Origin: an uncultured Eubacteriales bacterium
GTDB taxonomy: Bacteria > Acidobacteriota > Aminicenantia > Aminicenantales > Saccharicenantaceae
DNA: 64,000 nucleotides
Reading direction: 5' to 3'
NCBI GenBank assembly: GCA_964551995.1
Contig: CAZKFD010000006.1
Location: forward strand, 2,894-66,893
The translations under genes were made by a program, and so were the position numbers. The notes below the pieces were generated by a model. It made no database searches. It saw only the letters and a list, made by a program, of their open reading frames with translations, and was not told where the DNA came from. This document shows positions 5,902-64,000 of this stretch, in pieces (position 1 is the first letter of the stretch; the number at the start of each line of letters is the position of its first letter).

Positions 5902-6035
5902 GGGATGGGGATGAGGGCCGTCCGGCTCCCCCGCGCTAGCGCTCCCCCGGGAACCAGTCCCGTCGGTTCCCCCGTCGGAAGCCGACGGGACCCCCTCCGC
6001 TACGGGGGTTCCCGGACGGCCCTCATCCCCATCCC
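5902..6035. repeat. 134-bp nested palindromic element in a divergent intergenic region
   Basis: Perfect 24-nt arms: GGGATGGGGATGAGGGCCGTCCGG (5902-5925) and CCGGACGGCCCTCATCCCCATCCC (6012-6035). Inner inverted repeats are also present (CCGGGAACC/GGTTCCCGG, GTCCCGTCGG/CCGACGGGAC). Confidence 0.75.
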
Positions 6036-16971: not shown

Positions 16972-17459
16972 TGCGGATCTTGTCTCCTCGAGGGCCGGAC
17001 GAAAAACGAGTTCCCTTTATACCAGAGAAACCGCCCTGGGTCAAAACCCCAGAATTTCCTCCGCCACCCGCGCTCCTCGCACGGCCGCCTTCTCAGGGAA
17101 GGGCAGAAACATCCGGTTTATATCAACGAACTTTGGAATATAATTTCGATGGTTCCCCGCCATAAGGAGCTCGAGGACTTTCTGGTACGAAAGATCGGCC
17201 GGGATCTTGAGATTGCCGATCATCCGAAACGCGGTCTCCGGCTTCGGGATTCCTCTCGCCGGGGAACAGGAAGCCTGCCTTTATTGACCGCCGCGGGACG
17301 GGCGTGCTATAAACGGGGCTGATCGCGACGCGATGAATCGAACGAAGAGCTCCTCCATGAAAAAATCCCGCGTCCTGATCCTGGCGGCCGTGGCCGCTTA
17401 CTGGAAGCTCGCCGGGGAGATCTGGGTCAGGTATTCGGGCAATTTTTGATTATAATTAT

Positions 17460-17591
17460 GGGGACACAATACTCATTTCCGAATTTCCTCCTGCCAGGCG
17501 CCTCTGCGCCAGCCATCCTTCTCAGTCGTTTCTCGTCGGACGCAGGAGCGTGCCTCGGCGCAAGAAATCGGGAAAAGAGTATTGTGTCCCC
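17460..17591. repeat. MITE-like inverted-repeat element, copy A (132 bp)
   Basis: Left end GGGGACACAATACTCATTTCCGAATTTC (17460-17487). Reverse complement of the right end (17564-17591) is GGGGACACAATACTCTTTTCCCGATTTC. Ends 22 nt upstream of the symporter start codon. Confidence 0.8.
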
Positions 17592-17613
17592 AAATTAGCG
17601 CAAATTAGCGATC

Positions 17614-19719
17614 ATGACGATCTTTGGACTGCACTGGCTCGACTTCACGATCGTCGTCCTCTTCGTCCTCGCCGTCCTCTGGCTCGGCCGCCTGGCCGGC
17701 CGCAGGACGCGGAGCGCGGAGGATTTCTACGTCGCCGGGCGCCGGCTTGGGAAGATCTACCAGTTCTTTCTCAACCTGGGGACCTCGACCAACGCCGACC
17801 AGGCCATCGTCGTTTCCCGCGAGGTCTACCGCCAGGGCATCGGCGGCATGTGGATCCAGTATCTCGTCCTCTTCCTGACGCCCTTTTACTGGTTCACGAC
17901 GGGGTTCTTCCGCCGCGTCCGGCTGGTGACCATCGGCGATTTCTTCGAGGAACGCTTCAAGAGCAAGTTCCTCGGCGCGTCCTTCGCCGTTTTCACGCTC
18001 TTCATGGCCTTCCTCGGGAACGGGGTCGGTTACATGGTCGCGGCCAAGACGATGATGGCCCTGACGCCCAAGCCGGTTGCCAAATATACGGCCCAGGAGA
18101 AGCTCAGCGTCGACCTTTTCCACGAGTACCGGGCGCTCGAGCTCAAGGCGGAGTCGGGGCTCACGCCCGCGGAGCAGAAACGCTTCGACGAGCTCGCCGA
18201 GCGCTCGAAGAAGGACGAGCTCAAGGCCATCATCTCCTACACGAACCCCGTCGCGATCTACTCGACCTACACGGTCATCGTCGCCGTCTACACGATGATG
18301 GGCGGGTTCCTGGCGGCCGCGATCACGGACGTCATCCAGGGGATCCTCCTGACGGTCTTCTCGATCATACTGATCCCCATCGCCCTGGCCCGGATCGGCG
18401 GCTTCGCCGGCCTGCACGCCCTCGTGCCGGACTTCATGTTCCGGCTTTTCGGCTCGGCGGCGACGAGCGAGTACGCCTGGTACACGATCGTGGCCATGGT
18501 CCTCGCGAACCTGGTCTCCATCATCGCCGTCGCTACGGGCATGCAGACGGCCGGCTCGGCCAAGAACGAGACGGCGGCCCGGGTCGGCATGATCGGCGGC
18601 ATGTTCTTCAAGCGCTTCATCATGATCTTCTGGGCCCTGACCGGGCTTCTCGCCATCGCCCTCTACGCCGGGAAGCTCCACGACCCCGACCTCATCTGGG
18701 GCCACATGACGATGGACCTCCTCTTCCCCGGCGCCATCGGGCTGATGATGGCCGGGATCCTGGCGGCAAAGATGTCGGCGCTGGCGGGCTCGAGCGTCTC
18801 CTATTCGGCTCTCTTCATCCGCAACCTCTACCAGCCGTTCGTCAAGCCGAAGTCGGACCGGCACCTGATCAACGTCGGCCGGGCCGCGATCGCCGTGACC
18901 CTTCTCGGCGGCGTCGGGGTGGCGCTCTTCGTCGGCAACCTCCTCGACCTGTTCAAGTATTTCATCTCGCTGCCGGCGATCTTCGGCGCCGCGATCTGGC
19001 TCGGCTTCATGTGGCGCCGGCTGACGAAGGCGGCTGTCATCATCCAGGTTTTCCTCTGCTTCACGATCTACGCCCTCGTCCCGACCCTCTTCCAGTCGCT
19101 GGACTGGGCGAAGACGCTGCCGGCCTTTCTCCAGGAAACCGAGGCCCAAGTCGTCACGATCACGACGCGGGCCGTACGCGGGGACGTCGAGGCCGGGCGG
19201 GCCTCCGCCGTCGGCGAGATGATCAAGAAGACGCGCGTCAATCCGCCGACCGGCATCTTTTTCGAGAAGGTGGCCCTGACCGACCCCGAGAACCCGGAGT
19301 CGCCGCGGATCGGGATCGGGCGCTTCCAGGCGGAGGTCTGGGTCCTCAGCCGGCTGGGGATCGATTTCTCGCGCTTTTCCGCGGCCCAGCTGAACGCCGT
19401 GCGCTTCGGCTTCGACGCGCTCTTCCCGTTCGTGCTGCTCTTTCTCCTGAGCGCCGTGACGCGGCCGGTCCCGAAGCGGGACCTGGACCGGTTCTTCGCC
19501 AAGGTCCACACGCCGGTCCAGCCGACGAGGGAGGGCGAGGAGGGGGCCCTCCGGCGCGCGGCCGAGGACTACGGCGAGATCGAAAAACGGAAGCTCCGTC
19601 CGGGCTCGAGCTGGGAATTCATGAAGCCGGCCCGGAGCGACGTCATCGGCTTTCTCGCGAGCTGGCTCCTCGTCGGCGTCATCATCCTGCTCCTGTGGCT
19701 CATGGTCAGCATCAAGTAG
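17614..19719 (+). CDS. Sodium:solute symporter (SSS) family transporter
   Basis: ~13-14 TM helices and an N-terminal pattern typical of SSS (DFYVAGRRLG). 701 aa. Confidence 0.85.
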   Translation: MTIFGLHWLDFTIVVLFVLAVLWLGRLAGRRTRSAEDFYVAGRRLGKIYQFFLNLGTSTNADQAIVVSREVYRQGIGGMWIQYLVLFLTPFYWFTTGFFRRVRLVTIGDFFEERFKSKFLGASFAVFTLFMAFLGNGVGYMVAAKTMMALTPKPVAKYTAQEKLSVDLFHEYRALELKAESGLTPAEQKRFDELAERSKKDELKAIISYTNPVAIYSTYTVIVAVYTMMGGFLAAAITDVIQGILLTVFSIILIPIALARIGGFAGLHALVPDFMFRLFGSAATSEYAWYTIVAMVLANLVSIIAVATGMQTAGSAKNETAARVGMIGGMFFKRFIMIFWALTGLLAIALYAGKLHDPDLIWGHMTMDLLFPGAIGLMMAGILAAKMSALAGSSVSYSALFIRNLYQPFVKPKSDRHLINVGRAAIAVTLLGGVGVALFVGNLLDLFKYFISLPAIFGAAIWLGFMWRRLTKAAVIIQVFLCFTIYALVPTLFQSLDWAKTLPAFLQETEAQVVTITTRAVRGDVEAGRASAVGEMIKKTRVNPPTGIFFEKVALTDPENPESPRIGIGRFQAEVWVLSRLGIDFSRFSAAQLNAVRFGFDALFPFVLLFLLSAVTRPVPKRDLDRFFAKVHTPVQPTREGEEGALRRAAEDYGEIEKRKLRPGSSWEFMKPARSDVIGFLASWLLVGVIILLLWLMVSIK

Positions 19720-19775
19720 CCGGCCCTCGCCCTGCGTCCGCGGGCAGATTTCATCGCGGCTTCCCGATATTTCCC

Positions 19776-19817
19776 TTGACAAACCCCGATGGCCGGCCTA
19801 TTATACTCGGAGTAAAA
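19776..19817 (+). promoter_or_regulatory. Sigma-70-like promoter (TTGACA-17-TATTAT) overlapped by a 17-bp palindrome (candidate operator)
   Basis: TTGACA at 19776-19781, an exact 17-nt spacer, TATTAT at 19799-19804. TTATACTC-G-GAGTAAAA (19801-19817) is a 7/8 inverted repeat. Sits ~60 nt upstream of the LolA-like gene. Confidence 0.45.
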
Positions 19818-19874
19818 ATTATTGTCTTAGAGTAAAAGCCCTGAGCCTAGGCCGGTTCGGGAAGGAGGTCTGCC

Positions 19875-25777: not shown

Positions 25778-26845
25778 ATGAAAAGGGAAATCCGCGACCT
25801 GACGCTCGAGGAGCTCCAGGCGGAGCTCGCGGCCCTCGGCGAACGTCCATTTCGGGCCGGACAGATTTTTTCCTGGCTTTACCATAAGGGCGCATCGGAT
25901 TTCGGGGAATTTTCATCGTTGTCCAAGGGCCTCCGCGATATGCTGGCCGCGCGATTTACGATCAGCCGGCTCGAACTCGAGGCGCGGCTGGAATCCAGTG
26001 ACGGAACGGCCAAGTTCCTCTTCAAGCTGGCCGATGGCCCCTGCGTCGAGGCCGTCCTTATTCCGGCCGGGAAAAGAAAGACCGCCTGCATTTCAACGCA
26101 AGTCGGCTGCAAGTTCGCCTGCGGCTTCTGCGCCAGTGGCCTCCACGGCTTTAGGCGGAACCTGACGCCGTCGGAGATCACCGGCCAAGCGCTCGCGCTC
26201 CGGGCCGAGGCCGGCGGCGAGATCACGAACTATGTCTTCATGGGCATGGGCGAGCCTCTGGACAACTTCGACAACCTGGCCAAGGCCCTGCGCATCATGA
26301 ACGCGCCAGAGGGCATGGGGATCGCGGCGCGCCGCATGACAATCTCGACGGCCGGCTACGTCCCGGGCATCGCGCGGCTCAAGGAGCTCGACCTGCAGGT
26401 CAATCTCTCGGTTTCTCTCCACGCCGCGAACGACCGCCTGCGCGACCGGCTCATGCCGATCAACAGGAAATACCCGCTCGAAAAGCTCGTTGCCGCCTGC
26501 GAGGATTACATCCGGTCCGGCGGCCGGATGATTACCCTCGAGTACGTCGTCATCCAGGGTGTCAACGGCGGGCTCAACGATGCCGACGGGCTGGCCGGGA
26601 TCGCCCGCCGCCTGAGGGCCAAGGTCAACCTGATCGTCTACAGCCCGGTTCCCGGCCTTGCCTTCGATGTCCCGCCCGAGGCCGACGTGGCGCGCTTCAC
26701 GCGCTGGCTCGAAGAGAGGAAGGTCCGCGTCACGCGACGCCGCTCCAAAGGACAGGACATCCTGGCCGCCTGCGGACAGCTCGCCGGCCGCTTCACGGAA
26801 AAGGCGGAGACGGCCGGACGCCCGAGACCGGTCAAAGAGAGCTGA
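25778..26845 (+). CDS. rlmN: 23S rRNA/tRNA (adenine-C2)-methyltransferase RlmN (radical SAM)
   Basis: N-terminal FRAGQIFSWLY motif, radical-SAM CxxxCxxC (GCKFACGFCASG), MGMGEPL, and C-terminal GQDILAACGQL. Confidence 0.9.
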   Translation: MKREIRDLTLEELQAELAALGERPFRAGQIFSWLYHKGASDFGEFSSLSKGLRDMLAARFTISRLELEARLESSDGTAKFLFKLADGPCVEAVLIPAGKRKTACISTQVGCKFACGFCASGLHGFRRNLTPSEITGQALALRAEAGGEITNYVFMGMGEPLDNFDNLAKALRIMNAPEGMGIAARRMTISTAGYVPGIARLKELDLQVNLSVSLHAANDRLRDRLMPINRKYPLEKLVAACEDYIRSGGRMITLEYVVIQGVNGGLNDADGLAGIARRLRAKVNLIVYSPVPGLAFDVPPEADVARFTRWLEERKVRVTRRRSKGQDILAACGQLAGRFTEKAETAGRPRPVKES

Positions 26846-28133
26846 GCACGGCCAGCGTTTCTATGTGCGGCGTGTGCGGGAAAAAATCGTAGATCTTCAG
26901 GTCCCGGACCCCGTAGGCCTGCCGCAGGATCTTCAGGTCGCGCGCCAGCGTCGTCGGGTTGCAGGAGAGGTAGAGGACGAGCGGGACGCGGGCCGCGGCC
27001 AACTCCCGCAGCACCTCGGGGTCCACGCCCTTGCGCGGGGGATCGAGGATGACGACGTCGACGCCCCGTTCGAGAAGCTCCGGCAGCCACGCCTCGCTCG
27101 TCCCTTCGCAGAGGCTGAAGTTTCCGGCCCGGTTGAGCTCGATGTTCTTCTTGAGATAGCGCAGGTTGGCGGGGTCCGGCTCGACCCCGAAGACCTCTCT
27201 CGCGCCGCCGGCCAGGAAGAGGCCGAAGGTCCCGAGGCCGCAATAGAGATCGGCGACCGTCGCGTCCGGCATCCCCTTCACGGCCTCGGCCATGTCGTCG
27301 AAAACCTTCTCCAGGATGGCCACGTTGACCTGGAAGAACGACCGGGCTCCGACCCTGTAGGAAATCCCGCAGACGACCTCTTCGAGCCGGCCGACGCCGC
27401 CCATCGTTTCCTCCCGGACGCGTGTGCCGTCCTTGACCAATCCCACGATCCCCGACAGGGGATAACGCAGGTGGAGGCCCGAGAGTTTGCCCGACATCTC
27501 CTCAATCCTCGCGGCCGACTCGAGATGGAAGATGACAAGGGACCGTCGCCGCGACCGGCTCTCCCTGATCTCGAGGTCCGATACGGCCTCCCACTCCTCG
27601 CGGCCGACGAAGGCGACGAGCTCGGCGGCGAGGTCGTTCACCGCGTCGGAGACGAGATAACAGCGGTCCACCGGGACGAAGGACTCGCGCTCGCCCGGTT
27701 CGTGATAGACGGCCCGGGCCGTCCCGCCCTGCCGCACGATGCGCAGCCGGATCCTGTTCCGGTATCCCCAGATCTCTGGCGATGGTGTGACATTGAGAGC
27801 GCCGGAAAAGGCGTCCAGCGCGTGGCCGACGATCTCTTCGACCTGGGCCTTCTTCACCTCGAGCTGGGTGCCGTAATCCATGTCCTGATAGGGCGAGCAG
27901 GCGAGGTAATGGCGGCACCTCGGATCGACGCGGGCCGAGGACTTCTCGACGATCCGGACGGTCCGTGCCTCGGCGAAGCTCTTCCGCTCCCGGACGACCT
28001 CGGCCTCGACCGTTTCGCCCGGGAGCCCCCGGTCCGCGAAGACGACCTTCCCGCCGTCATGGGCCAGACTCCGCCCCGGGTAGACGATCTTTTCAATCTT
28101 CAATCCAGTCAATAAAGGGGACATAATACTCAT
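26832..28133 (-). CDS. Class I SAM-dependent RNA (uracil-5)-methyltransferase, TrmA/RlmD family
   Basis: N-terminal TRAM-like segment (GLPGETVEAEVVRERK), SAM motif DLYCGLGTFG, and catalytic C-terminal block (LVYLSCNPTTLARD). The start is uncertain because both candidate ATGs (28133, 28124) lie inside repeat copy B. Confidence 0.8.
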   Translation of the reverse strand: MSIMSPLLTGLKIEKIVYPGRSLAHDGGKVVFADRGLPGETVEAEVVRERKSFAEARTVRIVEKSSARVDPRCRHYLACSPYQDMDYGTQLEVKKAQVEEIVGHALDAFSGALNVTPSPEIWGYRNRIRLRIVRQGGTARAVYHEPGERESFVPVDRCYLVSDAVNDLAAELVAFVGREEWEAVSDLEIRESRSRRRSLVIFHLESAARIEEMSGKLSGLHLRYPLSGIVGLVKDGTRVREETMGGVGRLEEVVCGISYRVGARSFFQVNVAILEKVFDDMAEAVKGMPDATVADLYCGLGTFGLFLAGGAREVFGVEPDPANLRYLKKNIELNRAGNFSLCEGTSEAWLPELLERGVDVVILDPPRKGVDPEVLRELAAARVPLVLYLSCNPTTLARDLKILRQAYGVRDLKIYDFFPHTPHIETLAVLSSL

Positions 28134-28271
28134 TTCCTAATTTCTTCGGCCGGCGGAGGCGCGACTCTCATTTCCGGCCCCTCCCGGCGCCCCCTCGGCG
28201 TCATGGCGTCTCAGCCGGACGGCCCCGTTCCGGCCCCCTTGTCGAAATTCGGAAATGAGTATTGTGTCCCC
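28117..28271. repeat. MITE-like inverted-repeat element, copy B (155 bp)
   Basis: Left end GGGGACATAATACTCATTTCCTAATTTC (28117-28144). Reverse complement of the right end (28244-28271) is GGGGACACAATACTCATTTCCGAATTTC. Confidence 0.8.
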
Positions 28272-29488
28272 AATTTGATGTGGCGGCCCCTGCCGCTCCA
28301 GGGGACACCCATTTCCGACGGCAGGGCGTTCGCCGCATAGCAGGCCTCGAGCGCCTCGTCCAGACCATCGACCCAGATCCTCTGCGCCCCGCCGCCTTCC
28401 ACCCCTCCCCCTTCCGCCCCTCCGCCTCCCTCCTCAACGCGCCGCAGCCCGTCCGGGAATTCCCGGATCTCCGGCATCGAATCCTGCATCGCGTTGACGC
28501 AAAGCGTCTGGCTTGCGGCCGCTTTGAGTCCGCAAACCGGAAGTTTGCCGCTTCTCACGCCCCGGACGGTGTCCCAGAGCTTGTTCATGCGACCCTCGTC
28601 TGGAACCCCGTACTCCCGCCGCGTCCCGTCCGCGAACTCGGCCTTCAGGCCCGACACGCGGCTCTCGCATCTCACCGTCCCCCTCTCGAACTCATACGAG
28701 AAGACCGGGCCTCTTTCGGCTCGTCCGGCGTGCGTGACGTAAAACAGCACTTCGACGCCTTCTTCGGTCGCGGCCCGCATCGCCGCCGTGTCGTAGTTTT
28801 CGATGGGGTAGGCGCGGTAGAGCTCGGCTTCGACATCGACCGGGCGCGCCGCCTCCCGGTGCCCTTTCCCCAGCACGTAGAACATGTTGTGGAGGTCGTG
28901 GGCCATGGCGTTCTGAGCCGGGCTGTCGAGGATCCACCCTCCGGCGTCGTCGCGCTTCCTCCCGGCCCACCCGTTCCTCCGGTAATACGCCTCGTCGCGC
29001 GGCCAGAGGTACAGGCACTTCAGCCGCTTCGCCCGGCCGAACCGCCCGGCTATGACGTCGCTCTTCAGCGCCTGAACCGCCGCGCTGAACGACCACTGGT
29101 AGCCGACCGCCGCCCAGCGCCCCGCGCTCTCCCTCTCGGCCTCGATCATCTCCCGTGCTTCCCGGATCGTGCCTGCGAGCGGCTTCTCGCAAAGGACGTA
29201 GCTTCCCCGCTCCAGCGCGAGCCGCGTCTGGCGTGCGTGGAACTGGATGGGGGAGGAGAGGACGGCCAGTTCCGCCGTCCTGTTCCGGTAGAAATCCTCC
29301 AGCGCCGCGTAGAGCGGAACGCGCATGGCCCGCAGCTCCTCGAGCCACGGGCACCGCTCCGGTTCGGGGTCGACCGCCCCCGCGATCCGGAAGAGGCCCG
29401 AGTCCTTCGCGTTGAGGAGCTCTCGCACGTAGACAGCGCCCATGCCGCCGATGCCGACGAGGACGAGCGATACGGGGGCCCTGCTCAT
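28211..29488 (-). CDS. Gfo/Idh/MocA family oxidoreductase (C-terminal ~20 codons encoded by repeat copy B)
   Basis: Start at ATG 29488 (MSRAPVSLVLVGIGGMGAVY Rossmann motif) and an EKP motif (VLCEKPLA). The tail ...GTQYSFPNFDKGAGTGPSG* is read from the element. The longer listed ORF (to 29692) overlaps the upstream gene. Confidence 0.8.
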   Translation of the reverse strand: MSRAPVSLVLVGIGGMGAVYVRELLNAKDSGLFRIAGAVDPEPERCPWLEELRAMRVPLYAALEDFYRNRTAELAVLSSPIQFHARQTRLALERGSYVLCEKPLAGTIREAREMIEAERESAGRWAAVGYQWSFSAAVQALKSDVIAGRFGRAKRLKCLYLWPRDEAYYRRNGWAGRKRDDAGGWILDSPAQNAMAHDLHNMFYVLGKGHREAARPVDVEAELYRAYPIENYDTAAMRAATEEGVEVLFYVTHAGRAERGPVFSYEFERGTVRCESRVSGLKAEFADGTRREYGVPDEGRMNKLWDTVRGVRSGKLPVCGLKAAASQTLCVNAMQDSMPEIREFPDGLRRVEEGGGGAEGGGVEGGGAQRIWVDGLDEALEACYAANALPSEMGVPWSGRGRHIKLGTQYSFPNFDKGAGTGPSG

Positions 29489-29501
29489 GTTTTCCGGCGG
29501 C

Positions 29502-30638
29502 TCAATATTCGCACAGTTTGCCGTGCTCGTCCAGCATGGCCATGTAGTTGTCGTACTTCGTCCCGACGGCGACGCTGTGGCTCGAGCCAAGGATGAAGCG
29601 CCCGCCGGGCTTAGCGCACGACATGGCCCGCCGGACGTCTTGCCGGACGTCCTTCGCCGTCCCGCCGACCAAGTGCTCGACGGCGACGCCACCCCAGAGC
29701 GTGATCTGCCGCCCGTACGCCCTCTTGAGCCTGCAAATGTCCATTCCGGCCGTGGGCTGGATCGACTGGTAGGCGTCGTAGCCGATCTCGATGAAGTAAT
29801 CCATCATGGCGTTGACGTTGCCGCAGCAGTGCTTGAGGATCTTCTTGCCCAGCGCCTTGACGTTCCGGGCCCGCTCCTTGTTGGCCTCGAGGAACATGTC
29901 GCGGAACGTGTCCCGGCCGACGAAGGGGCCGCGGTTGTAGGCGAGGTCCTCGTCCCAGAGGACGCCGTCCGAACCCGGATGGATCCGGACGCCGTCGGCC
30001 TGGTTCTGCTGCCTGACGAGAAAGGCCGTCGCCGCCCGCACGACGTCCGGGCTCGCGGCGATCTCCGTCAAGCCTCTCTCCATGCCGCCCAGCAGGACGA
30101 TGCCGACGGACCCGCCAGACGGGCCGCAGATGAATTTTTCCGTCCCGAGCTCTCGGATGACGGCGTCCAGGATCCTCCAGGACCGCTCGTCGCGCCGCGG
30201 CGGCTCAGGCTCCCGCTCGAATTCTGCCGCCGTGAAGATCTTCGCCTGCGCGACCGGGTCCCGGATGCAGGTGATGTCCTGCGTGACCTCCGAGAACTTG
30301 TAGACCCGGCCGTATTTGTCCTCCCACGTCTCGGGATCGATGCGGCGCGGCGGAGGGTCGCCGGTCTCCGCCGGCATCTCCCAGGTCGCAGCGGGAAAGG
30401 TGACGATGTCGAGCGGCAGCCGCCGGTGGAGCTTGATGTGGTCTTTGAACCAGCTTTCGGCGACCTCGTCCCGCCGGCCCTCCCAGAAGGCGATCTGCGA
30501 CCGAGCCTTGGCCCGGAGATAGGTCTCGCGCCCGATGATCCTCTCGACCGTGTCGAAGTCGATGGCGAATTCCCCATAGGGGACCCTGTCGGGGATGCGG
30601 CCTTCGAGGACCGCGAGGACCCGCTCTTTGGAGGTCAT
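29502..30638 (-). CDS. UroD/MtaA-family methyltransferase-like protein (second paralogue)
   Basis: Start MTSKERVLAVLEGRIPDRVP (typical UroD-family N-terminus). ATG 30638 forms an ATGA overlap with the GH38 stop. ~378 aa. Confidence 0.75.
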   Translation of the reverse strand: MTSKERVLAVLEGRIPDRVPYGEFAIDFDTVERIIGRETYLRAKARSQIAFWEGRRDEVAESWFKDHIKLHRRLPLDIVTFPAATWEMPAETGDPPPRRIDPETWEDKYGRVYKFSEVTQDITCIRDPVAQAKIFTAAEFEREPEPPRRDERSWRILDAVIRELGTEKFICGPSGGSVGIVLLGGMERGLTEIAASPDVVRAATAFLVRQQNQADGVRIHPGSDGVLWDEDLAYNRGPFVGRDTFRDMFLEANKERARNVKALGKKILKHCCGNVNAMMDYFIEIGYDAYQSIQPTAGMDICRLKRAYGRQITLWGGVAVEHLVGGTAKDVRQDVRRAMSCAKPGGRFILGSSHSVAVGTKYDNYMAMLDEHGKLCEY

Positions 30639-35942: not shown

Positions 35943-38267
35943 TCACCGGCTCATCTTGAAAGTGATGACGATCGGCTTCCAGACCTTGACAGCCACGCCG
36001 TCCTTTTTCGCCGGCTGGAACTTCCATCTCTTCACGGCGTCCTGGGCGGCCTGTTCCAGGCCCATATCGTCCTGCAATCCCTTGAGGATGCCGGTCCGGA
36101 TGACGTTCCCGGTTTCGCTGATGAGAGCGTTGATGGTGACGGACCCTTCCTTGCCGAACCTCAGGGCCGCCGACGGATACACGGGCTCGAAGGACTTGAT
36201 GACCTGTGGCGGTTCGTCGACGGTGTCGAGATCGACGAGCTGGCCGAAGATGGCTTTGGCCGTCAGCAGGGACTGGTTCTTGAGCTCATCGCCGCCCACC
36301 GTCGAACCCTGGGCCGCCGTCTGGGCGGGTGTCTGCTGGGGTGTCTGCGTCGGCGGTTGAGCGGGGCCCGTTTCCGGCTTGGCGGGGGCCGCGACCGGCT
36401 GTCCGGCCTGGCCCTGGGTTTGTGCCTGGGCGCTCTTGTCCTCTCCCGCGCCGGTCCCCGCCGGCGTCGTCTCCGCGGGCTTCTGCTGGGCGGTGGTCGT
36501 GGCGGTCTTCTTCTGCGGGCCCGCCGCCGGCAGCCTGAGGTGATCGACGCTCGCGGGCTGCGCCGGGATGATGGCATCGGCCGGGCCGGGGAGCGGCTCC
36601 TGCCGGGTCTGCACTGCGGCGGGCGCCGGCTTGGGCTTCGGGCTCACCGCCTTGAGCTTTTCTTCCGGCAGGGGCGGGATGGCATTGTTGGCATTATCCG
36701 CCGTCTCTTCCGAAGGGGTCGATTGGGTCACCGCGGCGGGGTTGTGCGTGACGACCTCGGCCGGCTTGGCGGCGTGCTTGGGCCGGAGGATGAGGAAGCC
36801 CACGGCCGCGACCACGACCAGGCCCGCGGCGACTGCGAGGACGGGCGAAACAGATTTTTTCTTATCGATCTCGTAGATGTCCTTGAACATCCGCGGCTCG
36901 GGTCCCCTCCTGGGCTCGGCAGGCCGGACCGGCTCCCCCCTCGCCGGCGTCTCCGCCCTTTTCTCCGGCTTTTTGGGCTCGGCCCAGGGGCTTGTTTCGG
37001 TTTCGAGCCTCTGGAACGGCGCGGGCCCGACCGGGCGTGCGGCGGCGGGAGGCTCGGGAGCGTGTGCGTGAGCGGCGGGCCGCGCCTGCGGCTGGGCCTG
37101 CATCGAAGGCGGCGCGGGCTTCTGCTTCTCGGCCACGGCGGGAGGCATCGGCGGCGGGGGTGTCGGCTTCAGTTTCTCGGCGAACGCGAAGGGCGTCGGC
37201 GCCGGATGGGCCTGAGGGCCCGGTTTCGGTTTCTCGAAAACAGAAGGAGCGGGAGCGACGGGCGCAGGCGCGGGTTTCGCCTTCAGCGGCGCCGCCGGCG
37301 GCGGGGGCTCGATCTTCGGCTTCTCCGGGACGGGCTCAGGCTTCAGCTCGGGCTTCGGCGGGGCCTTGGCGGCTCTCTTCTTCTCGTGCTCGAGCCCGAA
37401 ATCCGCCAGCGTCTCCTTGAGGAGCGCGTCGATATCCTCGGTCTCAGATTCTTTTTTGACGGCGTCGTGGGCCCTGCCGCCGTGGTCCTTCGGCACCGCG
37501 GGAGGGTGTCCGGCGGCCTTGGCCGGTTCGGACCGGCGCCCTTCCTCTTTTTCCGGCCTGATGTTGAGGAGGCTCTCGAGCCGGATCTCTCCGTCCCCCG
37601 GCAGCTTGGACGCGGGAGCGATCCTGATTTTCGGCAGCGACTCTTTGACGGGCCTGGGCTCTGGAGCAGCCTCGGCGGGCTCGCGTTCCTCACGCCCGGG
37701 GGCGGAATGGGGCCCCGTCTCGAAGCGCGGCCGCTCGTCCCGCGATAGCCTTGTCTCGAAGGCCGGCTTGACGCTGGCCGCGCGGACCTCCGGGGCCGGC
37801 TGCGGGCGCCGCGGCTCTTCCTGGATGGGCTTCATCGCCGAGATGGCCTGAAGCGCCTCGTCCTCATCCTCCCGGGTCTCCGGCTTGATGTCCGGGACCG
37901 TGAGGACGCCGTGGATGGAGGCCAGAAACTTGGGCATGTCGAGGGGCTTTTCGAAGTATTCGGAGGCGCCGTAGGTGCGGAGCGCTTCCGTCCGGTAGAT
38001 GCGGTCCTTGTAGACCCCCGTCATGATGAAGACGGGGATGTTCGTGGACGGATCCTTCGTGATGCGGTCGCAGAGCTCGAAGCCGTGGATCTTGGAGAGC
38101 ATGGCCTCGAGGAGGACCAGATCGGGCTTTTCGCTCTGGTACTTCTCCCAGCCGGCCTGCCCGTCCCCGGCCAGGACGACATCGAAGCCCTCCTGGACGA
38201 GGACCTGCTCGAGCGCCTGGAGGGACGCCTGGTCATAATCGATGACGAGAATCTTCTTCTTGCCCAT
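35943..38267 (-). CDS. Receiver (REC) domain::Pro/Ala-rich linker::TM::TonB C-terminal domain fusion protein
   Basis: N-terminal CheY-like fold (KKILVIDYDQ..., PDLVLLEAML, FIMTG, EKP) with Glu at the phospho-acceptor position. One central TM (VSPVLAVAAGLVVVAAVGFLIL). C-terminal TonB_C (SFEPVYPSAALRFGKEGSVTINALISETGNV...AVKRWKFQPAKKDG). Confidence 0.8.
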   Translation of the reverse strand: MGKKKILVIDYDQASLQALEQVLVQEGFDVVLAGDGQAGWEKYQSEKPDLVLLEAMLSKIHGFELCDRITKDPSTNIPVFIMTGVYKDRIYRTEALRTYGASEYFEKPLDMPKFLASIHGVLTVPDIKPETREDEDEALQAISAMKPIQEEPRRPQPAPEVRAASVKPAFETRLSRDERPRFETGPHSAPGREEREPAEAAPEPRPVKESLPKIRIAPASKLPGDGEIRLESLLNIRPEKEEGRRSEPAKAAGHPPAVPKDHGGRAHDAVKKESETEDIDALLKETLADFGLEHEKKRAAKAPPKPELKPEPVPEKPKIEPPPPAAPLKAKPAPAPVAPAPSVFEKPKPGPQAHPAPTPFAFAEKLKPTPPPPMPPAVAEKQKPAPPSMQAQPQARPAAHAHAPEPPAAARPVGPAPFQRLETETSPWAEPKKPEKRAETPARGEPVRPAEPRRGPEPRMFKDIYEIDKKKSVSPVLAVAAGLVVVAAVGFLILRPKHAAKPAEVVTHNPAAVTQSTPSEETADNANNAIPPLPEEKLKAVSPKPKPAPAAVQTRQEPLPGPADAIIPAQPASVDHLRLPAAGPQKKTATTTAQQKPAETTPAGTGAGEDKSAQAQTQGQAGQPVAAPAKPETGPAQPPTQTPQQTPAQTAAQGSTVGGDELKNQSLLTAKAIFGQLVDLDTVDEPPQVIKSFEPVYPSAALRFGKEGSVTINALISETGNVIRTGILKGLQDDMGLEQAAQDAVKRWKFQPAKKDGVAVKVWKPIVITFKMSR

Positions 38268-38528
38268 CTCGCAGGCCTTTCAGGCTTTTACTGCGTCCTT
38301 TCGGCTCTATTCTGTCTCACCCCCAGACCCGGTCAATCACCCCTTAGGGTGATTTCAAGGATGATATTCCCCCCCGGCGCCTGAGGAGGGAGAATCATCA
38401 GCTTTCGGACGGCCCTTGCCGCCCGGCGCCGCGGTCCCGGCGGCGGCGATTATTAATTTTTCTTTGCCCCGAGCTCTCCTTTTTAATACAATGCCGGCGG
38501 ACAACACGTCGAAGGGAGGGTGTGAACG

Positions 38529-39239
38529 ATGAGCGAGGCGACGAAACGCGGTTTCGGATGGATCCCGGACTATCCCGATTTCCGGGATTTCACCGAAGAC
38601 ACGCCGGGGGTCCGCGAGATCCTGGCGGCGGCCGGGATCCGCGCGGCTGCGGGAACGCGGGGGACGGCGGTGAATGGGGCGGGGCGCGCGACGCCCCCGG
38701 GGGCGCCGCCGGCCGCGGTGGACCTCCGCGAGTGGGCCTCGGCCGTCGAGGACCAGGGCGCCCTCGGCTCCTGCACGGCCCATGCCGGGGCCGGGGTCAT
38801 CGAGTATTACGAGCGCAAGTCGTTCGGCCGGCACATCGATGCCTCGCGCCTTTTCCTCTACAAGGCCACGCGTAACCTGATGAAGATGAAGGGGGACACC
38901 GGCGCCTACCTGAGGTTGACGATGGGGGCCATGGTCCTCTTCGGCGTCGCGCCTGAGGAATACTGGCCCTACACGGACGATGATCAGGAGTTCGACAGGG
39001 AGCCGCCGGCGTTCTGTTACGCGTTCGCCCAGAATTATAAGACGATCAAGTATTACCGGCACGACCCGCCCGGGCTGGCGCGGCGGCGGGTCCTCGACCG
39101 GCTCAAGACCTACATCGCGGCCGGCCACCCGGCGATGTTCGGCTTCACCGTCTACAGCTCCGTTAAAGCAGCAGTTTTTCGTAGGGAAATATCAGTCGCT
39201 ATCGACAAAATACCGATAAATACCGATAATTTCAATTAA
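38529..39239 (+). pseudogene. Papain-like (C1 family) cysteine peptidase, 3'-truncated at a GC-content cliff (~39163)
   Basis: Catalytic Gln/Cys block VEDQGALGSCTAHAG and family blocks up to ...HPAMFGFTVYSS. The His/Asn half is missing. The last 24 codons (KAAVFRREISVAIDKIPINTDNFN*) are AT-rich foreign sequence. Confidence 0.65.
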
Positions 39240-39788
39240 AGGCCAGTTATTATACCTCCCTCTATAATAAGACCTATGCTCCGAGTACCCGCCTCCAAGG
39301 ACTGCATAAAATACTTAAATTTACGCTTTTTTTAACAATAAAGGTCCGAAAAGGCACGGCAAAATAGCGATAGAAAATGTGGGAAATAAACCCTTATCCG
39401 GTAATATAAATAACGCCGATAAAATGGTAAAGGGAGGAGATTTTGCCCGCCCTAAATAGGGGATTGCAAAATGCAATAAGAAACAAAGTTTTTAGAGCCC
39501 GAGTTTTATAGTAAGTCATGAAGAACCCCCGACCCACCTGTCTTAAAGGGGGCGAGGTTAAATTGGAGAGAAACGTAGACCGATTTAAAGAGAGCGGACC
39601 ATGACCGTTCTGGTTTGCGTTGGACCTCAAAATAATAGACGCCCGACGGTATTCGGGGATCCCTCCCATTACAAAGGTCCATAGGTTCGCCTTTCGTGTT
39701 TGGAGAACAGGCTAAAGCTGCATCCTTACCCTATTAGCTGACAATTCCGTCGTGCAGACCGTCGGGGCGGGTAAAATTAGACGAGTTC

Positions 39789-40820: not shown

Positions 40821-40950
40821 TTTAATCTTGCCCTTTTAATCTAAAGCATTCGCCTAATAAAGACTATATATGACTAATTATAACACATCTTATCATAAAT
40901 TAGAAGGGATTTCTTGATTCAATTATCATTGCCGGATATCATTTACCCTA

Positions 40951-41169
40951 ATGGAAAAAACCGGACTGATGACCAAGGAAGAAGTCCAGGAATATCTAAG
41001 GATTTCTCACCAGACACTTCAGCGCTATATGAAGGAATATTGCCTTCCCTATATAAAGCTTGGTCGTCGCGTCCTCTTCGACCCCGTGGCATTGAGGGCA
41101 TGGCTTAAGACAAAGACGATTGTCTCAGGAATAACGGCGAAGGCTTCGCGACGGCGAACTAATCGTTGA
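40951..41169 (+). CDS. Excisionase-family / MerR-like helix-turn-helix DNA-binding protein
   Basis: 72 aa. LMTKEEVQEYLRISHQTLQRYMKEYCLPYIKLGRRVLFDPVALRAWL matches the HTH_17/excisionase pattern. Divergent from the integrase. Confidence 0.75.
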   Translation: MEKTGLMTKEEVQEYLRISHQTLQRYMKEYCLPYIKLGRRVLFDPVALRAWLKTKTIVSGITAKASRRRTNR

Positions 41170-45941: not shown

Positions 45942-48900
45942 ATGGCGTTGCCGCCTGACGCATCGTATTCACAGCCCGGAGCTTCCGCCTCGGCGGCCGC
46001 GCACCTTAGGCGCATCCGGTCGCTCATCCCGCGGGCCATGCTCCGTGACCAAGAATATGCCCGGCGTGTAGTTGCCTCACTCGAGAGCCGATATCGCGCC
46101 CGCAGCGAAGGCGCGCGTGCGGGCGGGGCCGAGAGCCACGGCAGCGCCGGCCCGGGCCGCGTGACGCCCGACCTCCTCGATGACCTGGCCGCGCTTGAAG
46201 CCCGTCTCGAAGCCTCTGCCGGCCGGTGCCGCGACCGCGCCCGCCTCCGTCCCCCCGTCTCCTACCCCCACGATCTGCCGATCACGGCGCGCGCCCCAGC
46301 CATAATCGAGGCCATCCGCTCGCCGCGCCATCGCGTCGTCATCATCGCCGGCGAGACCGGCTGCGGCAAGAGCACGCAGATACCCAAGATGTGCCTCGAA
46401 GCTGGCCGCGGCATTGCGGGTCTCGTCGGCTGCACACAGCCTCGTCGCATCGCCGCCATCACCATTGCCTACCGCATCGCGGAGGAGTTCGGGGAGGAAC
46501 TTGGCCGCTCCGTGGGCTACAAGATCCGGTTCCAAGACCGCACCTCCGCTTCCGGCTACATCAAGATTATGACCGACGGCATCCTCCTCGCCGAGACGCA
46601 GGGCGACCGCCTCCTCAATGACTACGACACAATCATCATCGACGAGGCCCACGAGCGCACGCTTAACATCGACTTCCTCTTGGGCATCCTGCGCCGTCTC
46701 CTCGACGCGCGCCCGGACCTCAAACTCATCATCACCTCAGCGACACTCGACACCGAGAAATTCTCGCAGGCCTTCCGCAACGCCCCCGTGATCGAGGTGA
46801 GCGGCCGCCTCTACCCTGTCGAAGTCGAATACCGCCCACCCGAAAAGGACGAGGCCGAGGACAAGGATTACGTCGGCCAGGCCGTCGAGGCCATCGCCGA
46901 CCTTCGCCGCGAGAAGCCCCCCGGCGACATCCTCGTCTTCATGCCGACCGAGCAGGACATCCTCGAGACCTGCCGCCTGCTCGAGGGGCGCAAGCTCCCG
47001 AACTCGACAGTCCTGCCGCTCTTCTCGCGCCTCCCTGCCGGTCGCCAGCGCATGGTCTACACGGTGACGGGGCCGAAGATCGTCGTCGCCACGAACGTCG
47101 CCGAGACGTCGCTCACGATCTCCGGTATCCGCTACGTCGTCGACACGGGTGTCGCCCGAATCGCCCAGTACCAGCCGGGAACGCGCATCAAGAGCCTACC
47201 GATAAGCCCGATCTCGCGTGCCTCTGCCGACCAACGCAAGGGCCGCTGCGGCCGTGTTCGTGAGGGCCTCTGCGTCCGCCTCTACTCAGAGGCCGAGTAC
47301 GAGGCACGAGACCGGTTCACGCAGCCCGAGATCCTGCGCTCGGACTTGGCGGAGGTCATCCTGCGCATGCTCGACCTCCGGTTGGGGGCGCCGCAGGATT
47401 TTCCGTTCATCGACCGCCCGGCGTTTAAGGCCGTCCGCGACGGCTACGAGACACTCCTCGAGCTCGGCGCGATTCGCCGTATTAATTCGGGGACACAATA
47501 CTCAATTCCGAATTCCCCTCGCCTCCGGGAACGCGGGGAAACAGCCGGCGACGGCATCGATTCCCGCGAGCGGCGCGGGAAGGCGGGAGACGGCCGGGGA
47601 CGGCCCTTTAAGAAATCGGAAACGAGTATTGTGTCTCCGATTTGGGCGCTCACCGACAAGGGCCGGCTGATGGCGCGCATGCCGCTCGATCCCCGCATCT
47701 CGCGCATGCTCATCGAGGCCCGGCGCGAGAACTGCCTCTCCGAGGTTGCCGTGCTTGCGGCCGCCCTCAGCATCCGCGACCCGCGCGAGCGCCCGCCCGA
47801 CCAGGCCGCCCAAGCCGACGCTGTCCACGCCGCCTTCCGCGACCCACATTCCGATTTCCTCGTCCTGCTCAATATCTGGAACCGGTACCACGGCGACTTC
47901 GAACGCCTCGGGAGCGGCACCCAGCGCCGCAAGTTCTGCCACGACAACTTCCTGTCCTTCCCGCGGATGCGCGAGTGGACCTACCTTCACGAAGAGATCG
48001 GCGCCGTCCTCGCCGAGCAGCGCCTCTGGTCGCCGAAATCCCCCGAGACCGGCAAATCGTCCCTCGCCCCGCACGCCGACATCTCGCCCGCGCTCTACGC
48101 CGGCATTCACCGCGCGATCCTGGCCGGATTCCTCTCGAACATCGCCGCCCACAAGGAGAAAAACCTCTACTCTGCCGCCAAGAACCGCGAGGTGATGCTC
48201 TGGCCCGGCTCGGTCCTCTTCAACAAAGCGCCCGGCTGGGTCGTGGCGACCGAAATGGTCAGGACCTCGCGCCTCTTCGGCCGCCAGGCCGCTCGCATAG
48301 ACCCTGCCTGGCTCGAGGAGCTCGGCGGCCCGCTCTGCAAGCGCTCCTACTCCGACGCCGCCTGGGACCGCGCCCGCGGCGAGGTCGTGGCCAAGGAGCG
48401 TGTTGCCCTCTTCGGCCTCGAGATCGTGCGCGACCGCCGCGTCTCTTACGGCCACATCAATCCTTCCGAGGCACACGAGATCTTCGTCATGTCTGGCCTC
48501 GTCGAGGGCAAGATTGACGAGCCGCCCCCCTTCCTCGCCCACAACCTCGCCCTCCAGCGCCGAGTCGAAGCCATGGAAGAGAAGCTCCGCCGCCGCGACA
48601 TCATGGTACCTGAGGCCGCGATCGCAAAGCTCTACTCCGAACGCCTGCCTCTGATCTCCGATGTCCGCTCGCTCCGCAAGCTCATTAAGGACCGCGGTTC
48701 CGACAAGTTCTTGCGCCTCACCGAGGACGACCTTTTGAGCGTCCGCCCCGACGCGGCGGCCGTTGCCTCCTTCCCCGACACGGTCGAGGTCGGCGGCCGC
48801 CCCTTCGCCGCGCTCTACAAGTTCGCCCCCGGCGAGGACGATGACGGCGTGACCCTGACCGTCCCCGCGAGCCTCCTCAGCGCCATCCCGCCCGGACGCC

Positions 48901-50237
48901 TCGAGTGGGGCGTGCCGGGCCTTTACAAGGACAAGATAGTCGCCCTTATCAAGGGCCTGCCCAAGCGCTACCGGAAACTCCTCGTGCCCGTGGCCGAGAA
49001 GGCCGAGACGATCGCCGAGGAGATGCCGCGCGCGCCCGAGGAGGTGCCGCTTTCGAGGGCCGTGGCTGAGTTCGTGCGGCGGCGCTTCGGCGCCGACATC
49101 CCGCCCCGCGAATGGGCCCTCGCTGAAGTCCCGAAGTATCTGCGAATGCGCGTCGCCGTGACCGATCCAGTGACCGGCCGTGTTATCGAGACCGGGCGCG
49201 ACGTCGAACTCCTCCGCAAGGTCATCGGCGCGGCGGACACAGCGCTGTCGAAGGTCGAGTCGCCGGCCTGGCAAGAGGCGCAGCGGAAATGGGAGAAGAC
49301 GGCGCTTGAGGCCTGGACGTTCGGCGACGTGCCTGAGAAGATTGCTGTCGGAACGTCGCTCACGGCTTATCCGGCGCTCGTCGTCGAAAGGGAGCCCGCG
49401 GGGGAATCGCTTGCCGTCCGCCTCTTTCCGGCGCGTGCCGAGGCCGAGGCCGCCCACTGTCAGGGCGTGCGCTGGCTTCTCCTCCGGAAATTCGCCAAGG
49501 AGCTGGCCTTCGTCCGCCGCTATCACAAGATCCCAGCCGAGTTCGAACGGGCGGCGCAAGCCTTCGGCGGGCGGGAGGCCGTCGAGCGCGCTATTGAGGC
49601 AGCGCTGGCCCGCGAAGTATTCGAGCGGGCGCACATTCGCACAGAAGCTGACTACCGCGCCTATGAGGCGTCGGCCGGGCGAGCGCTCTTCGAGAAAGGC
49701 CACGCCCTCACCCAGGCGACGCTCCGGGTCCTCGAACTCATGCTGGCGGTCCGGATGGAGCTCGGCCGGGGAGGGCTCGCCGTTCAGCGCGCCGCCGCCG
49801 CAGCCAAGGCGCGACCGAGGGAGACGCTCAGCCTCTACGAGCTCAGCCGCCTCAAGGAGCCGGTCGTCCCGGCTTACTACGAGCAGATCACGCGGGACCT
49901 CGACGTGCTCGTCCCGCCCGACTTCCTCGAGGCGTACCCGGTCGAGCGCCTCATCCGGCTGCCGCGCTACATCGAAGCGTTGAAGCTCCGGCTGGAGCGC
50001 GCCCGGATCGACCCGGAGAAGGACCGGGCGAAGTCCGCCCAAGTCGAGCCGTACGCTTCTGCGCTCGAACGCCTGCAGGGAAGTCCGGATCCGGAGAAGC
50101 GCCGGGCCGTCGAGGATCTGCGCTGGATGATCGAGGAGTTCAAGGTCTCGCTCTTCGCGCCCGAGATCAAGACGGCCTTCCCGATCTCGGCCGTCCGCTT
50201 GGCGCGGAAGATCAAGGAAATCGAAGCCATGGTCTAG
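45942..50237 (+). CDS. hrpA: ATP-dependent RNA helicase HrpA (DEAH/RHA family) carrying a 50-codon in-frame insertion
   Basis: Walker A GETGCGKST, DEAH box (IIIDEAHERTLNID), SAT (TSATL), motif VI (QRKGRCGR), HA2/OB region and a long HrpA-specific C-terminal extension. 1431 aa. Confidence 0.9.
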   Translation: MALPPDASYSQPGASASAAAHLRRIRSLIPRAMLRDQEYARRVVASLESRYRARSEGARAGGAESHGSAGPGRVTPDLLDDLAALEARLEASAGRCRDRARLRPPVSYPHDLPITARAPAIIEAIRSPRHRVVIIAGETGCGKSTQIPKMCLEAGRGIAGLVGCTQPRRIAAITIAYRIAEEFGEELGRSVGYKIRFQDRTSASGYIKIMTDGILLAETQGDRLLNDYDTIIIDEAHERTLNIDFLLGILRRLLDARPDLKLIITSATLDTEKFSQAFRNAPVIEVSGRLYPVEVEYRPPEKDEAEDKDYVGQAVEAIADLRREKPPGDILVFMPTEQDILETCRLLEGRKLPNSTVLPLFSRLPAGRQRMVYTVTGPKIVVATNVAETSLTISGIRYVVDTGVARIAQYQPGTRIKSLPISPISRASADQRKGRCGRVREGLCVRLYSEAEYEARDRFTQPEILRSDLAEVILRMLDLRLGAPQDFPFIDRPAFKAVRDGYETLLELGAIRRINSGTQYSIPNSPRLRERGETAGDGIDSRERRGKAGDGRGRPFKKSETSIVSPIWALTDKGRLMARMPLDPRISRMLIEARRENCLSEVAVLAAALSIRDPRERPPDQAAQADAVHAAFRDPHSDFLVLLNIWNRYHGDFERLGSGTQRRKFCHDNFLSFPRMREWTYLHEEIGAVLAEQRLWSPKSPETGKSSLAPHADISPALYAGIHRAILAGFLSNIAAHKEKNLYSAAKNREVMLWPGSVLFNKAPGWVVATEMVRTSRLFGRQAARIDPAWLEELGGPLCKRSYSDAAWDRARGEVVAKERVALFGLEIVRDRRVSYGHINPSEAHEIFVMSGLVEGKIDEPPPFLAHNLALQRRVEAMEEKLRRRDIMVPEAAIAKLYSERLPLISDVRSLRKLIKDRGSDKFLRLTEDDLLSVRPDAAAVASFPDTVEVGGRPFAALYKFAPGEDDDGVTLTVPASLLSAIPPGRLEWGVPGLYKDKIVALIKGLPKRYRKLLVPVAEKAETIAEEMPRAPEEVPLSRAVAEFVRRRFGADIPPREWALAEVPKYLRMRVAVTDPVTGRVIETGRDVELLRKVIGAADTALSKVESPAWQEAQRKWEKTALEAWTFGDVPEKIAVGTSLTAYPALVVEREPAGESLAVRLFPARAEAEAAHCQGVRWLLLRKFAKELAFVRRYHKIPAEFERAAQAFGGREAVERAIEAALAREVFERAHIRTEADYRAYEASAGRALFEKGHALTQATLRVLELMLAVRMELGRGGLAVQRAAAAAKARPRETLSLYELSRLKEPVVPAYYEQITRDLDVLVPPDFLEAYPVERLIRLPRYIEALKLRLERARIDPEKDRAKSAQVEPYASALERLQGSPDPEKRRAVEDLRWMIEEFKVSLFAPEIKTAFPISAVRLARKIKEIEAMV
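47489..47638. repeat. MITE-like inverted-repeat element, copy C (150 bp), inside the hrpA coding sequence
   Basis: Left end GGGGACACAATACTCAATTCCGAATTCC (47489-47516). Reverse complement of the right end (47612-47638) is GGAGACACAATACTCGTTTCCGATTTC. Confidence 0.8.
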
Positions 50238-61885: not shown

Positions 61886-61936
61886 AAAGCGAAGAGAACG
61901 GGCTCAGGGCGCTCGTTCGTCCTAGAGCTTGTTTTT

Positions 61937-63982: not shown

Positions 63983-64000
63983 CCGCTCTCTTGTCGTCCT

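Follow-up and report, generated by a model that had tools for sequence, protein, structure and literature searches.

Di Nocera, De Gregorio and Rocco (2013, BMC Genomics 14:522) described RAYT-like genes with long terminal inverted repeats (TIRs), which they named TIRYTs, and they named the units TIRtrons. The TIRs share the motif GGGGWSAS, the TIR families are 'moderately abundant' and occur as singles, dimers, and groups, and a distinct TIRYT group was found in the Acidobacteria. Quentin et al. (2018) placed the TIRYTs in TnpA-Y1 subclass 2.1. These are the only two papers on TIRYTs in the literature that we searched, and nothing was found there that links Aminicenantes with such repeats. 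The closest conceptual model is the REPIN-RAYT system (Bertels and Rainey 2011; Nunvar et al. 2010; Ton-Hoang et al. 2012). Here we analyse three short elements with inverted ends in a stretch of 64,000 nucleotides from contig CAZKFD010000006.1 of an uncultured bacterium, which is called the window throughout, and we propose, with a probability of about 0.85, that they belong to a TIRYT/TIRtron family of Candidatus Aminicenantes as its non-autonomous, REPIN-like arm dimers. Since their arms are the same as the inverted repeats that flank an HUH/tyrosine transposase gene in relatives, the elements would belong to a known but little-studied kind.

Arms, dimers, and solo arms

An earlier reading of the window from its letters (the sequence-only reading) had claimed three segments with inverted ends of about 28 nt, termini that agree at 23-28 of 28 positions, and GC-rich interiors that cannot be aligned. 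All of this was borne out. The inverted repeat bounds elements of 132, 155, and 150 bp, named copies A, B, and C here, and dinucleotide-preserving shuffles of the window give an expectation of 0 termini.

17455..17596, no strand assigned: copy A, a 132-bp arm dimer at 17460-17591, with its 5-nt AAWT-like outer flanks; arms 17460-17487 and 17564-17591, interior 76 nt; intergenic
28117..28271, no strand assigned: copy B, a 155-bp arm dimer; arms 28117-28144 and 28244-28271, interior 99 nt
47489..47638, no strand assigned: copy C, a 150-bp arm dimer; arms 47489-47516 and 47611-47638, interior 94 nt
28301..28320, plus strand: probable degenerate solo arm, GGGGACAC-----C-CATTTCCGA with a 5-nt gap, 30 nt to the right of copy B

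A search of the window with the 28-mer at up to 3 mismatches finds five termini, the sixth, at 47611-47638, being the worst with 5 mismatches in 28; the 21-mer core, GGGGACACAATACTCATTTCC, recovers all six at up to 3 mismatches. The 13-mer GGACACAATACTC matches just these six termini in the window, and GGGGACAC is present at every one of them with at most 1 mismatch. There is no further full copy in the 64 kb. The degenerate solo arm has a local score of 11, against a 99th percentile of 9 for the window background. The interiors have a GC content of 67-76% and do not align with each other. All three whole elements fold through their arms as long hairpins when treated as RNA (z -5.5 to -8.6), and copy A treated as DNA gives -36 kcal/mol (z -6.9). 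A single arm of the window type gives -1.8 kcal/mol (z -0.57) in the DNA fold and therefore has no palindrome of its own. A special structure in the interiors was considered and rejected because folding of the three window copies found none there beyond shuffles, the stability being that of the shuffles. A known RNA family had been named by the sequence-only reading as a reason to give up its interpretation; Rfam 15 at gathering thresholds has 0 matches in the whole window.

The family extends far beyond the window. A scan of one genome per GTDB species for the exact 21-mer found it in more than 106 stretches, mostly in metagenome-assembled genomes (MAGs) labelled Candidatus Aminicenantes or Aminicenantales, and a few lie in MAGs with the deposited labels Terriglobales, Bipolaricaulota, Armatimonadota, Eubacteriales, and others. 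No arm copies were found in viral contigs. The collected loci (L numbers below) and the window together hold 229 arm instances with up to 5 mismatches. Neighbouring arms within 400 bp form 82 pairs, of which 75 are convergent with GGGG outward, 7 are tandem, and 0 are divergent, and thus the paired arrangement is a structural rule. True solo arms, with no partner within 1.2 kb, number about 45-50, and there are a few tandem groups; close comparisons show that solo arms come about by ordinary deletions which remove the spacer and one arm. Further copies, paired and solo, thus exist in other genomes, and conserved ends with unrelated interiors, which it had called unusual, are the rule of the family, as the 75 convergent pairs have variable spacers.

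An information profile of 197 arms gives a conserved unit of 33 nt, AAWTC-GGGGACACAATACTCATTTCC-GAATTTC, in which GGGGACAC is nearly invariant. The outer 5 nt, AAWTC, carry 0.6-1.3 bits at each position, and beyond the unit the information drops to almost zero on both sides. Because the profile is so sharply bounded, the AAWT-like string that had been noticed in the AT-rich outer flanks is real and part of the conserved unit, and the suspicion that the terminus extends about 5 nt further was correct. The distance between cores varies continuously between 0 and about 140 nt and has a tail that reaches about 310 nt. At the short end, elements of 54-55 bp are near-perfect palindromes. The base composition of the interiors tracks the host genome, both arms of one dimer vary together, and the presence or absence of elements varies between species. 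Two copies in L078 have interiors that are 97% identical and flanks that differ, and shared interiors are also found in L061/L080 and in an 87-88-bp subfamily in L109-L111. Whole units have thus been copied, and the family shows signs of mobility. Nearby host DNA was considered as the source of the interiors and was rejected because the only matches are two elements with transposase remnants and one local duplication. A flip-flop inversion of the interior between orthologous copies, hinted at by eye in L011/L086, was not significant against shuffles.

Several variants of the arm dimer were observed. Composite elements (L080 3487-3626, L061 7387-7527, and L101 2292-2436) nest an inner palindrome with GGGACA-type ends (gggaattcGGGACATGAccc...GGGATCGTGTCCCgggaattccc) within an outer arm dimer, and a composite was copied at least 2 times within one genome (RA.bin134). 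Genomes with the ACCAATTTCC variant have 87-88-bp dimers with a conserved interior (L109 2869-2955 and 3655-3742; L110 1342-1428, 2128-2215, and 3455-3542; L111 1591-1677 and 4173-4259). This subfamily flanks the TIRtron on both sides, as RAYT genes lie between whole REPINs, and it looks like a more recently active population. Lastly, the arm GGGGACACAATACTGTGTCCC (L122 2855-2898, L012 2822-2887, and L043 2678-2743) is self-complementary, with a 9-bp stem that includes an extra G and a 4-nt loop, and the L122 arm folds at -9.7 kcal/mol (z -4.65). The L122 arm links TIR-type and REP-type ends inside one protein clade, and its REP-like hairpin within a TIR is possibly an intermediate between the two types.

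A Y1 transposase between the same arms

The sequence-only reading had found no transposase with these ends in the window, which is correct, and had suggested looking for a longer element that carries one, which is present in related genomes. Between the arms of a 296-bp element (L089 5752-6047) lies the start of an open reading frame (ORF), MPRIARVVIPGCPHHIIQRGNRRQ, and a motif search of all collected loci for ORFs of this type gave full-length versions. In L084, arms at 4993 (plus) and 5777 (minus) enclose a 229-aa ORF whose C-terminus enters the right arm. Its product matches Pfam Y1_Tnp ('Transposase IS200 like', PF01797) with 47.8 bits against a cut-off of 23, and the HUH motif H60-V-H62 and the tyrosine motif RYIERNPV are visible in it. 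In L025, a homolog on the opposite strand lies between arms at 3208 and 3966 and is also above the Y1_Tnp cut-off. The L084 and L025 proteins score 59.2 and 54.8 bits with NCBIfam REP_Tyr_transpos (NF047646), below the equivalog cut-off of 80. A PDB sequence search with the transposase gave no match, E. coli TnpA-REP included.

When the L084 protein was used as a query, 225 relatives were found in the genome collection and more than 5000 in a wider protein database, the latter being annotated as 'transposase' or 'REP-associated tyrosine transposase'. The loci of the best 80 of the 225 come from Aminicenantes, Omnitrophota, Elusimicrobiota, Planctomycetes, Spirochaetes, and Deltaproteobacteria. 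About 60 of these 80 are flanked by inverted repeats of 16-62 nt with a span of 720-930 bp, and nearly all of these TIRs start with GGGGACAC, GGTGACAC, or GGGACAG. Two deletion derivatives, L089 5752-6047 and L054 214-398, keep pieces of the transposase gene between their arms. That the interiors in general are nested deletion remnants of the transposase unit was rejected, since gene pieces are recognisable in just 2 of about 60.

Arm and transposase go together. Arm identity rises with transposase identity across 58 TIRtrons (Mantel rho 0.39, with 0 of 999 permutations as high), and 29 of 63 TIRtron loci have extra copies of their own arm variant within about 6 kb. At the site of copy A, the arms in L112 and L114 have ACCTATTC(C/A)CC, which matches their own TIRtron 2 kb away; the window and L015 have ACTCATTTCC at this site.

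The mechanism that we propose is as follows. A TIRtron of about 720-930 bp has, between long inverted repeats that start with GGGGACAC, a gene for a Y1 (HUH/tyrosine) transposase of about 220-230 aa that is related to the REP-associated tyrosine transposases and would act on single-stranded DNA (ssDNA), and the short elements would keep just the two 33-nt arms, facing each other across an unconstrained spacer. By analogy with TnpA of IS200/IS605 and with E. coli TnpA-REP, the two arms on ssDNA may pair into a stem of 28-33 bp, and the transposase, supplied in trans, may cut the stem at its base (AAWTC^GGGG) and move the hairpin without a target-site duplication. The spacer is sometimes lost along with one arm, which leaves a solo arm. 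We infer from this analogy the action on ssDNA, the recognition of the stem, the cut at its base, and the movement of the hairpin. Because a single arm of the window type does not fold alone, recognition may need both arms, or duplex DNA.

The sequence-only reading had also proposed a comparison for target-site duplications, and none was found at 70 dimers. Direct flank matches of 3-8 nt are at the permutation level, and 2-nt matches occur at 4 of the 70 against 0.7 expected. The lack of a target-site duplication fits HUH transposition and argues against a miniature inverted-repeat transposable element (MITE) of the DDE type. It is very improbable that the elements are classical MITEs, that is, internally deleted insertion sequences of a DDE transposase with 28-nt TIRs that move by cut-and-paste and duplicate the target site. 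The size of 50-300 bp, the TIRs, the AT-rich flanks, and the dispersed copies are MITE-like, but the sole type of gene between the arms is that of a Y1/HUH transposase, with no DDE transposase between arms in 187 loci, and the interiors are not nested deletions of one parent. Thus, of the suggestion that this is a MITE or REP-like family, the dispersed, REP-like or MITE-like nature stands, whereas a MITE in the usual sense does not because there is no target-site duplication and the enzyme is Y1/HUH and not DDE. A role as structure-specific recombination sites, like integron attC or Xer/dif-like sites, is hardly credible. Conserved inverted ends, a variable centre of 0-140 nt, and a hairpin-forming single strand would be expected of such sites, but RYYYAAC/GTTRRRY boxes are lacking in the arms, the copies are spaced 10-20 kb from each other with no cassette array and one of them is inside hrpA, there is no integrase beside any copy examined, and the associated enzyme is a Y1 transposase.

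Compared with the published TIRYTs, the likeness is close. A Y1 (PF01797) gene between long TIRs, and not between GTAG repetitive extragenic palindromes (REPs), is met in related genomes, GGGGACAC fits GGGGWSAS, TIR singles, dimers, and groups are dispersed here too, and several paralogous genes may occur in one genome, each paired with a TIR of its own. The differences are that the host clade (Candidatus Aminicenantes and neighbours, MAG-only) and the arm sequence are absent from Di Nocera et al. (2013) and Quentin et al. (2018), and that the abundance here, 3 dimers in 64 kb, looks high against the published 'moderately abundant'. In addition, Pfam finds no C-terminal helix-turn-helix (HTH) of subclass 2.1 (Bac_DnaA_C/HTH_23/HTH_28) in the C-terminal extension of about 100 aa, and no Pfam HTH family is found there even at E<=10. 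Newly documented here with respect to the TIRYT papers are the continuous spacer lengths, the in-frame read-through, the cross-species positions, and the genome-tracking arm variants.

With the REPIN-RAYT system the elements share two inverted conserved units around a less conserved spacer, a hairpin, non-autonomy, a cognate Y1 gene that is flanked by the same repeats and occupies the same chromosomal locus across species, long persistence with vertical inheritance, and singlets as decay products. Unlike REPs, the 33-nt unit has no GTAG or CGTC tetranucleotide on either strand and a single arm of the window type is not palindromic, although some sister-lineage arms (L122) are; unlike RAYTs, the protein is below the NCBIfam REP_Tyr_transpos equivalog cut-off; and unlike REPINs, the spacer is far more variable in length and the copies are not only extragenic. 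Rickettsia palindromic elements (RPEs) and intragenic REPs are similar in being small palindromes in frame in genes that stay open, but RPEs are CGTC-tagged, have conserved interiors and no known dedicated transposase, and belong to another host clade. The IS200/IS605 elements (IS608 and ISDra2) are alike in that their Y1 HUH transposase falls in the same Pfam family, in the lack of a target-site duplication, and in presumed ssDNA hairpins; they have no TIRs but use subterminal hairpins with unlike left and right ends, and they are multicopy, whereas here the TIRs are long and the gene is apparently single-locus and vertically inherited. Bacterial MITEs (Correia/NEMIS, RUP, ERIC, and Nezha) are alike in size, TIRs, hairpins, and sites at or overlapping gene ends, but target-site duplications, conserved interiors, and parents of the DDE type, all of which they have, are not found here. 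The family can be classed neither with the classical MITEs nor with the GTAG-type REPs.

Several points weigh against the assignment to a TIRtron family. There is no Y1 transposase gene within the 64-kb window, and both TIRtron loci of relatives are empty in it (26832-26845 and 19720-19874); the first lies between convergent rlmD-like and rlmN-like genes in L084/L107/L113/L115 and the second downstream of the symporter gene in L112/L114/L122. Because all window copies are at orthologous positions, their own transposition is presumed. Most interiors are unique even within one genome and therefore simple copy-and-paste is insufficient unless there is extra selection or gene conversion on the arms. 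The L025 TIRtron (CP070725, labelled Bipolaricaulota) has the same 21-mer arms with a protein that is 47% identical to that of L084, which is a mismatch with the co-variation, and horizontal transfer, arm capture, or a wrong taxonomic label are the possibilities. The family-wide census is biased because the loci were gathered by exact arm match. Finally, no experimental work on TIRYTs was found in the searched literature, and the cleavage sites and the hairpin intermediate are inferred. Apart from these points, a clean empty site for a full TIRtron was sought and rejected because the junctions in the window are too diverged to fix exact ends, and the empty locus at 19720-19874 was seen to bear a sigma-70-like promoter (TTGACA-17 nt-TATTAT, at about 19779-19807).

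Orthologous sites and host genes

Orthology was examined by flank searches among all collected loci, the flanks being about 75-85% identical. Counterparts of copy A lie upstream of the symporter gene in L015 (3523-3650), L112 (5811-5908), and L114 (5805-5900). Those of copy B are L039 6334-6460, L089 4347-4472, L084 3673-3721 (49 bp; L084/L107), and L108 1504-1626. Copy C has in-frame counterparts in L034 (1463-1561, 99 bp) and L043 (2678-2743, 66 bp), and other orthologs, L087, P0001, P0003, P0004, P0007, and P0010, have a solo arm at its site. Because the orthologous positions are occupied in other species, the three window copies are old and fixed and are not recent insertions. Thus, by the measure that the sequence-only reading had itself set for mobility, a comparison of orthologous loci, the window copies are ancient and fixed, and it is the family as a whole that shows signs of mobility.

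Over 25 orthologous pairs, the identity is 76% in the flanks, 85% in the 28-nt arms, and 34% in the interiors (37% in the shuffled control); only the closest pairs, L039/L089 and L113/L115, have alignable interiors, with about 70% identity. Since the arms are at 85% and the interiors at the shuffled level, the arms are under constraint and the spacer, which also changes in length, drifts at a neutral rate or faster. The window copies are, on these sequence comparisons, vertically inherited insertions that are tolerated or used by the host. Intact arms at fixed sites that follow the genome's own variant may be due to host selection, to gene conversion among hundreds of arms, or to turnover at preferred AT-rich sites.

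Two further explanations draw on this pattern. The first is that the arms are more than relics of past transposition and form a fixed, vertically inherited network of hairpins whose sequence stays matched to the Y1 transposase of the same genome, and we regard it as possible though unlikely. The arms would be re-templated or converted in place, or the elements would be repeatedly excised and re-inserted at the same AT-rich sites, and this would account for the finding that different species have their own arm variants and unrelated spacers at orthologous sites. If this were true, it would point to a domesticated TIRYT that maintains host-useful DNA or RNA hairpins, including ones that are translated in hrpA.

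The second, which we consider improbable, is that the arms are primarily host sites, either for the binding of a nucleoid or regulatory protein or as RNA hairpins that stabilise, terminate, or process transcripts, that selection on the host keeps them, and that the link to a transposase is only historical. It is in keeping with this that the window copies and many others are at orthologous positions where the flanks are only 75-85% identical, that the arms surpass the mostly coding flanks in conservation, with a spacer that is unconstrained, that the elements form very stable hairpins, that copy A is within a 5' leader, and that copy B gives a start codon and a C-terminus to its neighbours. 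But the same arms flank a transposase gene and their variants follow their own TIRtron, which a model of host sites does not predict, copies inside coding sequence make little sense for a terminator or an operator, solo arms and deletion remnants are common, and there is no match to a known RNA family. The paired protein-binding sites or RNA hairpin that the sequence-only reading had offered as a second interpretation may therefore be kept as possible secondary, exapted roles, which are compatible with arm dimers of a TIRtron family, but as a replacement they leave the transposase link unexplained. Taken together, its interpretation of the three elements is partly supported.

The genes of the window that adjoin or contain the elements are the following.

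17614..19719, plus strand: sodium:solute symporter (SSF) gene, directly downstream of copy A, its start codon 22 nt after it
26832..28124, minus strand: rlmD/TrmA-family methyltransferase gene, with its start codon, ATG at 28124-28122, in the left arm of copy B
28211..29692, minus strand: GFO/IDH/MocA oxidoreductase gene, its last 20 codons (...GTQYSFPNFDKGAGTGPSG*) from the right arm and interior of copy B
45942..50237, plus strand: hrpA, the gene for the ATP-dependent RNA helicase HrpA (1431 aa), which hosts copy C and has an intact ORF

Copy A is thus placed in the 5' leader of the symporter gene. That it ends 22 nt before the symporter start codon and is followed by two copies of CAAATTAGCG had been stated by the sequence-only reading and is correct, the tandem 10-bp repeat lying directly after copy A at 17591-17611. 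The palindrome is extended by TTAGCG, opposite CGCTAA, in copies from L019, L061, L080, L091, L094, and L101 as well as in the TIRtron of L122, and CAAATTAGCG may therefore represent an outer arm extension, specific to a subfamily, that was duplicated after copy A. Copy B occupies the entire gap between the two minus-strand genes. The ATG of the methyltransferase gene arises from a C-to-T variant of the arm, GGGGACAtAAT, where the consensus would give GTG, and in L084 the orthologous gene likewise begins within an arm, with a GTG at 3714 in the 49-bp element that corresponds to copy B.

Copy C adds 50 in-frame codons to hrpA, and all the HrpA domains are present. The insert comprises residues ~516-567 (...INSGTQYSIPNS...SETSIVSPI...) and lies between the LGAI and LTDKG (LT.KG) motifs, in a loop that has 4 residues in non-Aminicenantes orthologs. 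Several Aminicenantes orthologs have only GTQYQFPN there, which is one translated arm, and one ortholog has nothing. The six dimers in hrpA, from two sites and four genomes, are 150, 99, 66, 87, 75, and 75 bp long and share their frames (GTQYS.P and SE.SIVSP); the hrpA frame is open for 1446-1468 codons where the whole gene is in the locus and for 928 codons in L097. All six lengths are multiples of 3, for which the chance is about 0.001 when one random length in three is such a multiple, and this indicates that selection keeps HrpA intact. That 5 of the 6 reading frames of the arm are free of stops was considered as a special property and was rejected because 13% of shuffled arms are alike. 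Other species have extra in-frame dimers or solo arms at two more hrpA positions, which correspond to about 50072-50094 and 48024-48051 in the window (L034 4106-4192, L043 5348-5422, L097 2559-2633, and L020 6154; L043 3197), and hrpA looks like a hotspot for arm elements. The window itself has no arms at these two positions; GTCCGGATCCGGAGAAGCG at 50072-50094 has a faint likeness to an arm end and its flank.

Other features of the window were noted in passing. An unrelated inverted repeat at 5902-6035, GGGATGGGGATGAGGGCCGTCCGGCTCCCCC, has 31-nt arms that are 90% complementary and 72 nt apart, and an AT-rich inverted repeat at 43387-43611, with 50-nt arms that are 74% complementary and 125 nt apart, lies within a low-GC stretch. 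In the stretches 38000-44000 and 58000-64000 the GC content drops to 0.51-0.60 from the 0.65 or so of the rest of the window, and these stretches could be foreign islands. An extreme AT skew of -0.34 marks the 2-kb bin 36000-38000.

Meaning for the family

The arm sequences that are read in frame (the GTQYSFPN and SEMSIVSP peptides) and the overlaps with start and stop codons affect gene calling and protein-family alignments in Aminicenantes MAGs. Three findings merit follow-up: the conservation of position across species, the copies that are read in frame within hrpA, and the arm variants that are specific to each genome at orthologous sites. The family is a large natural data set for TIRYT/TIRtron systems in an uncultured lineage, and it is useful in having a 21-nt arm common to many species-level genomes, an autonomous partner, a co-variation of arm and transposase, and orthologous sites that can be compared. 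With these, comparative genomics could test whether REPIN-like repeats are selfish or maintained, and how the arms remain intact when the spacer decays.

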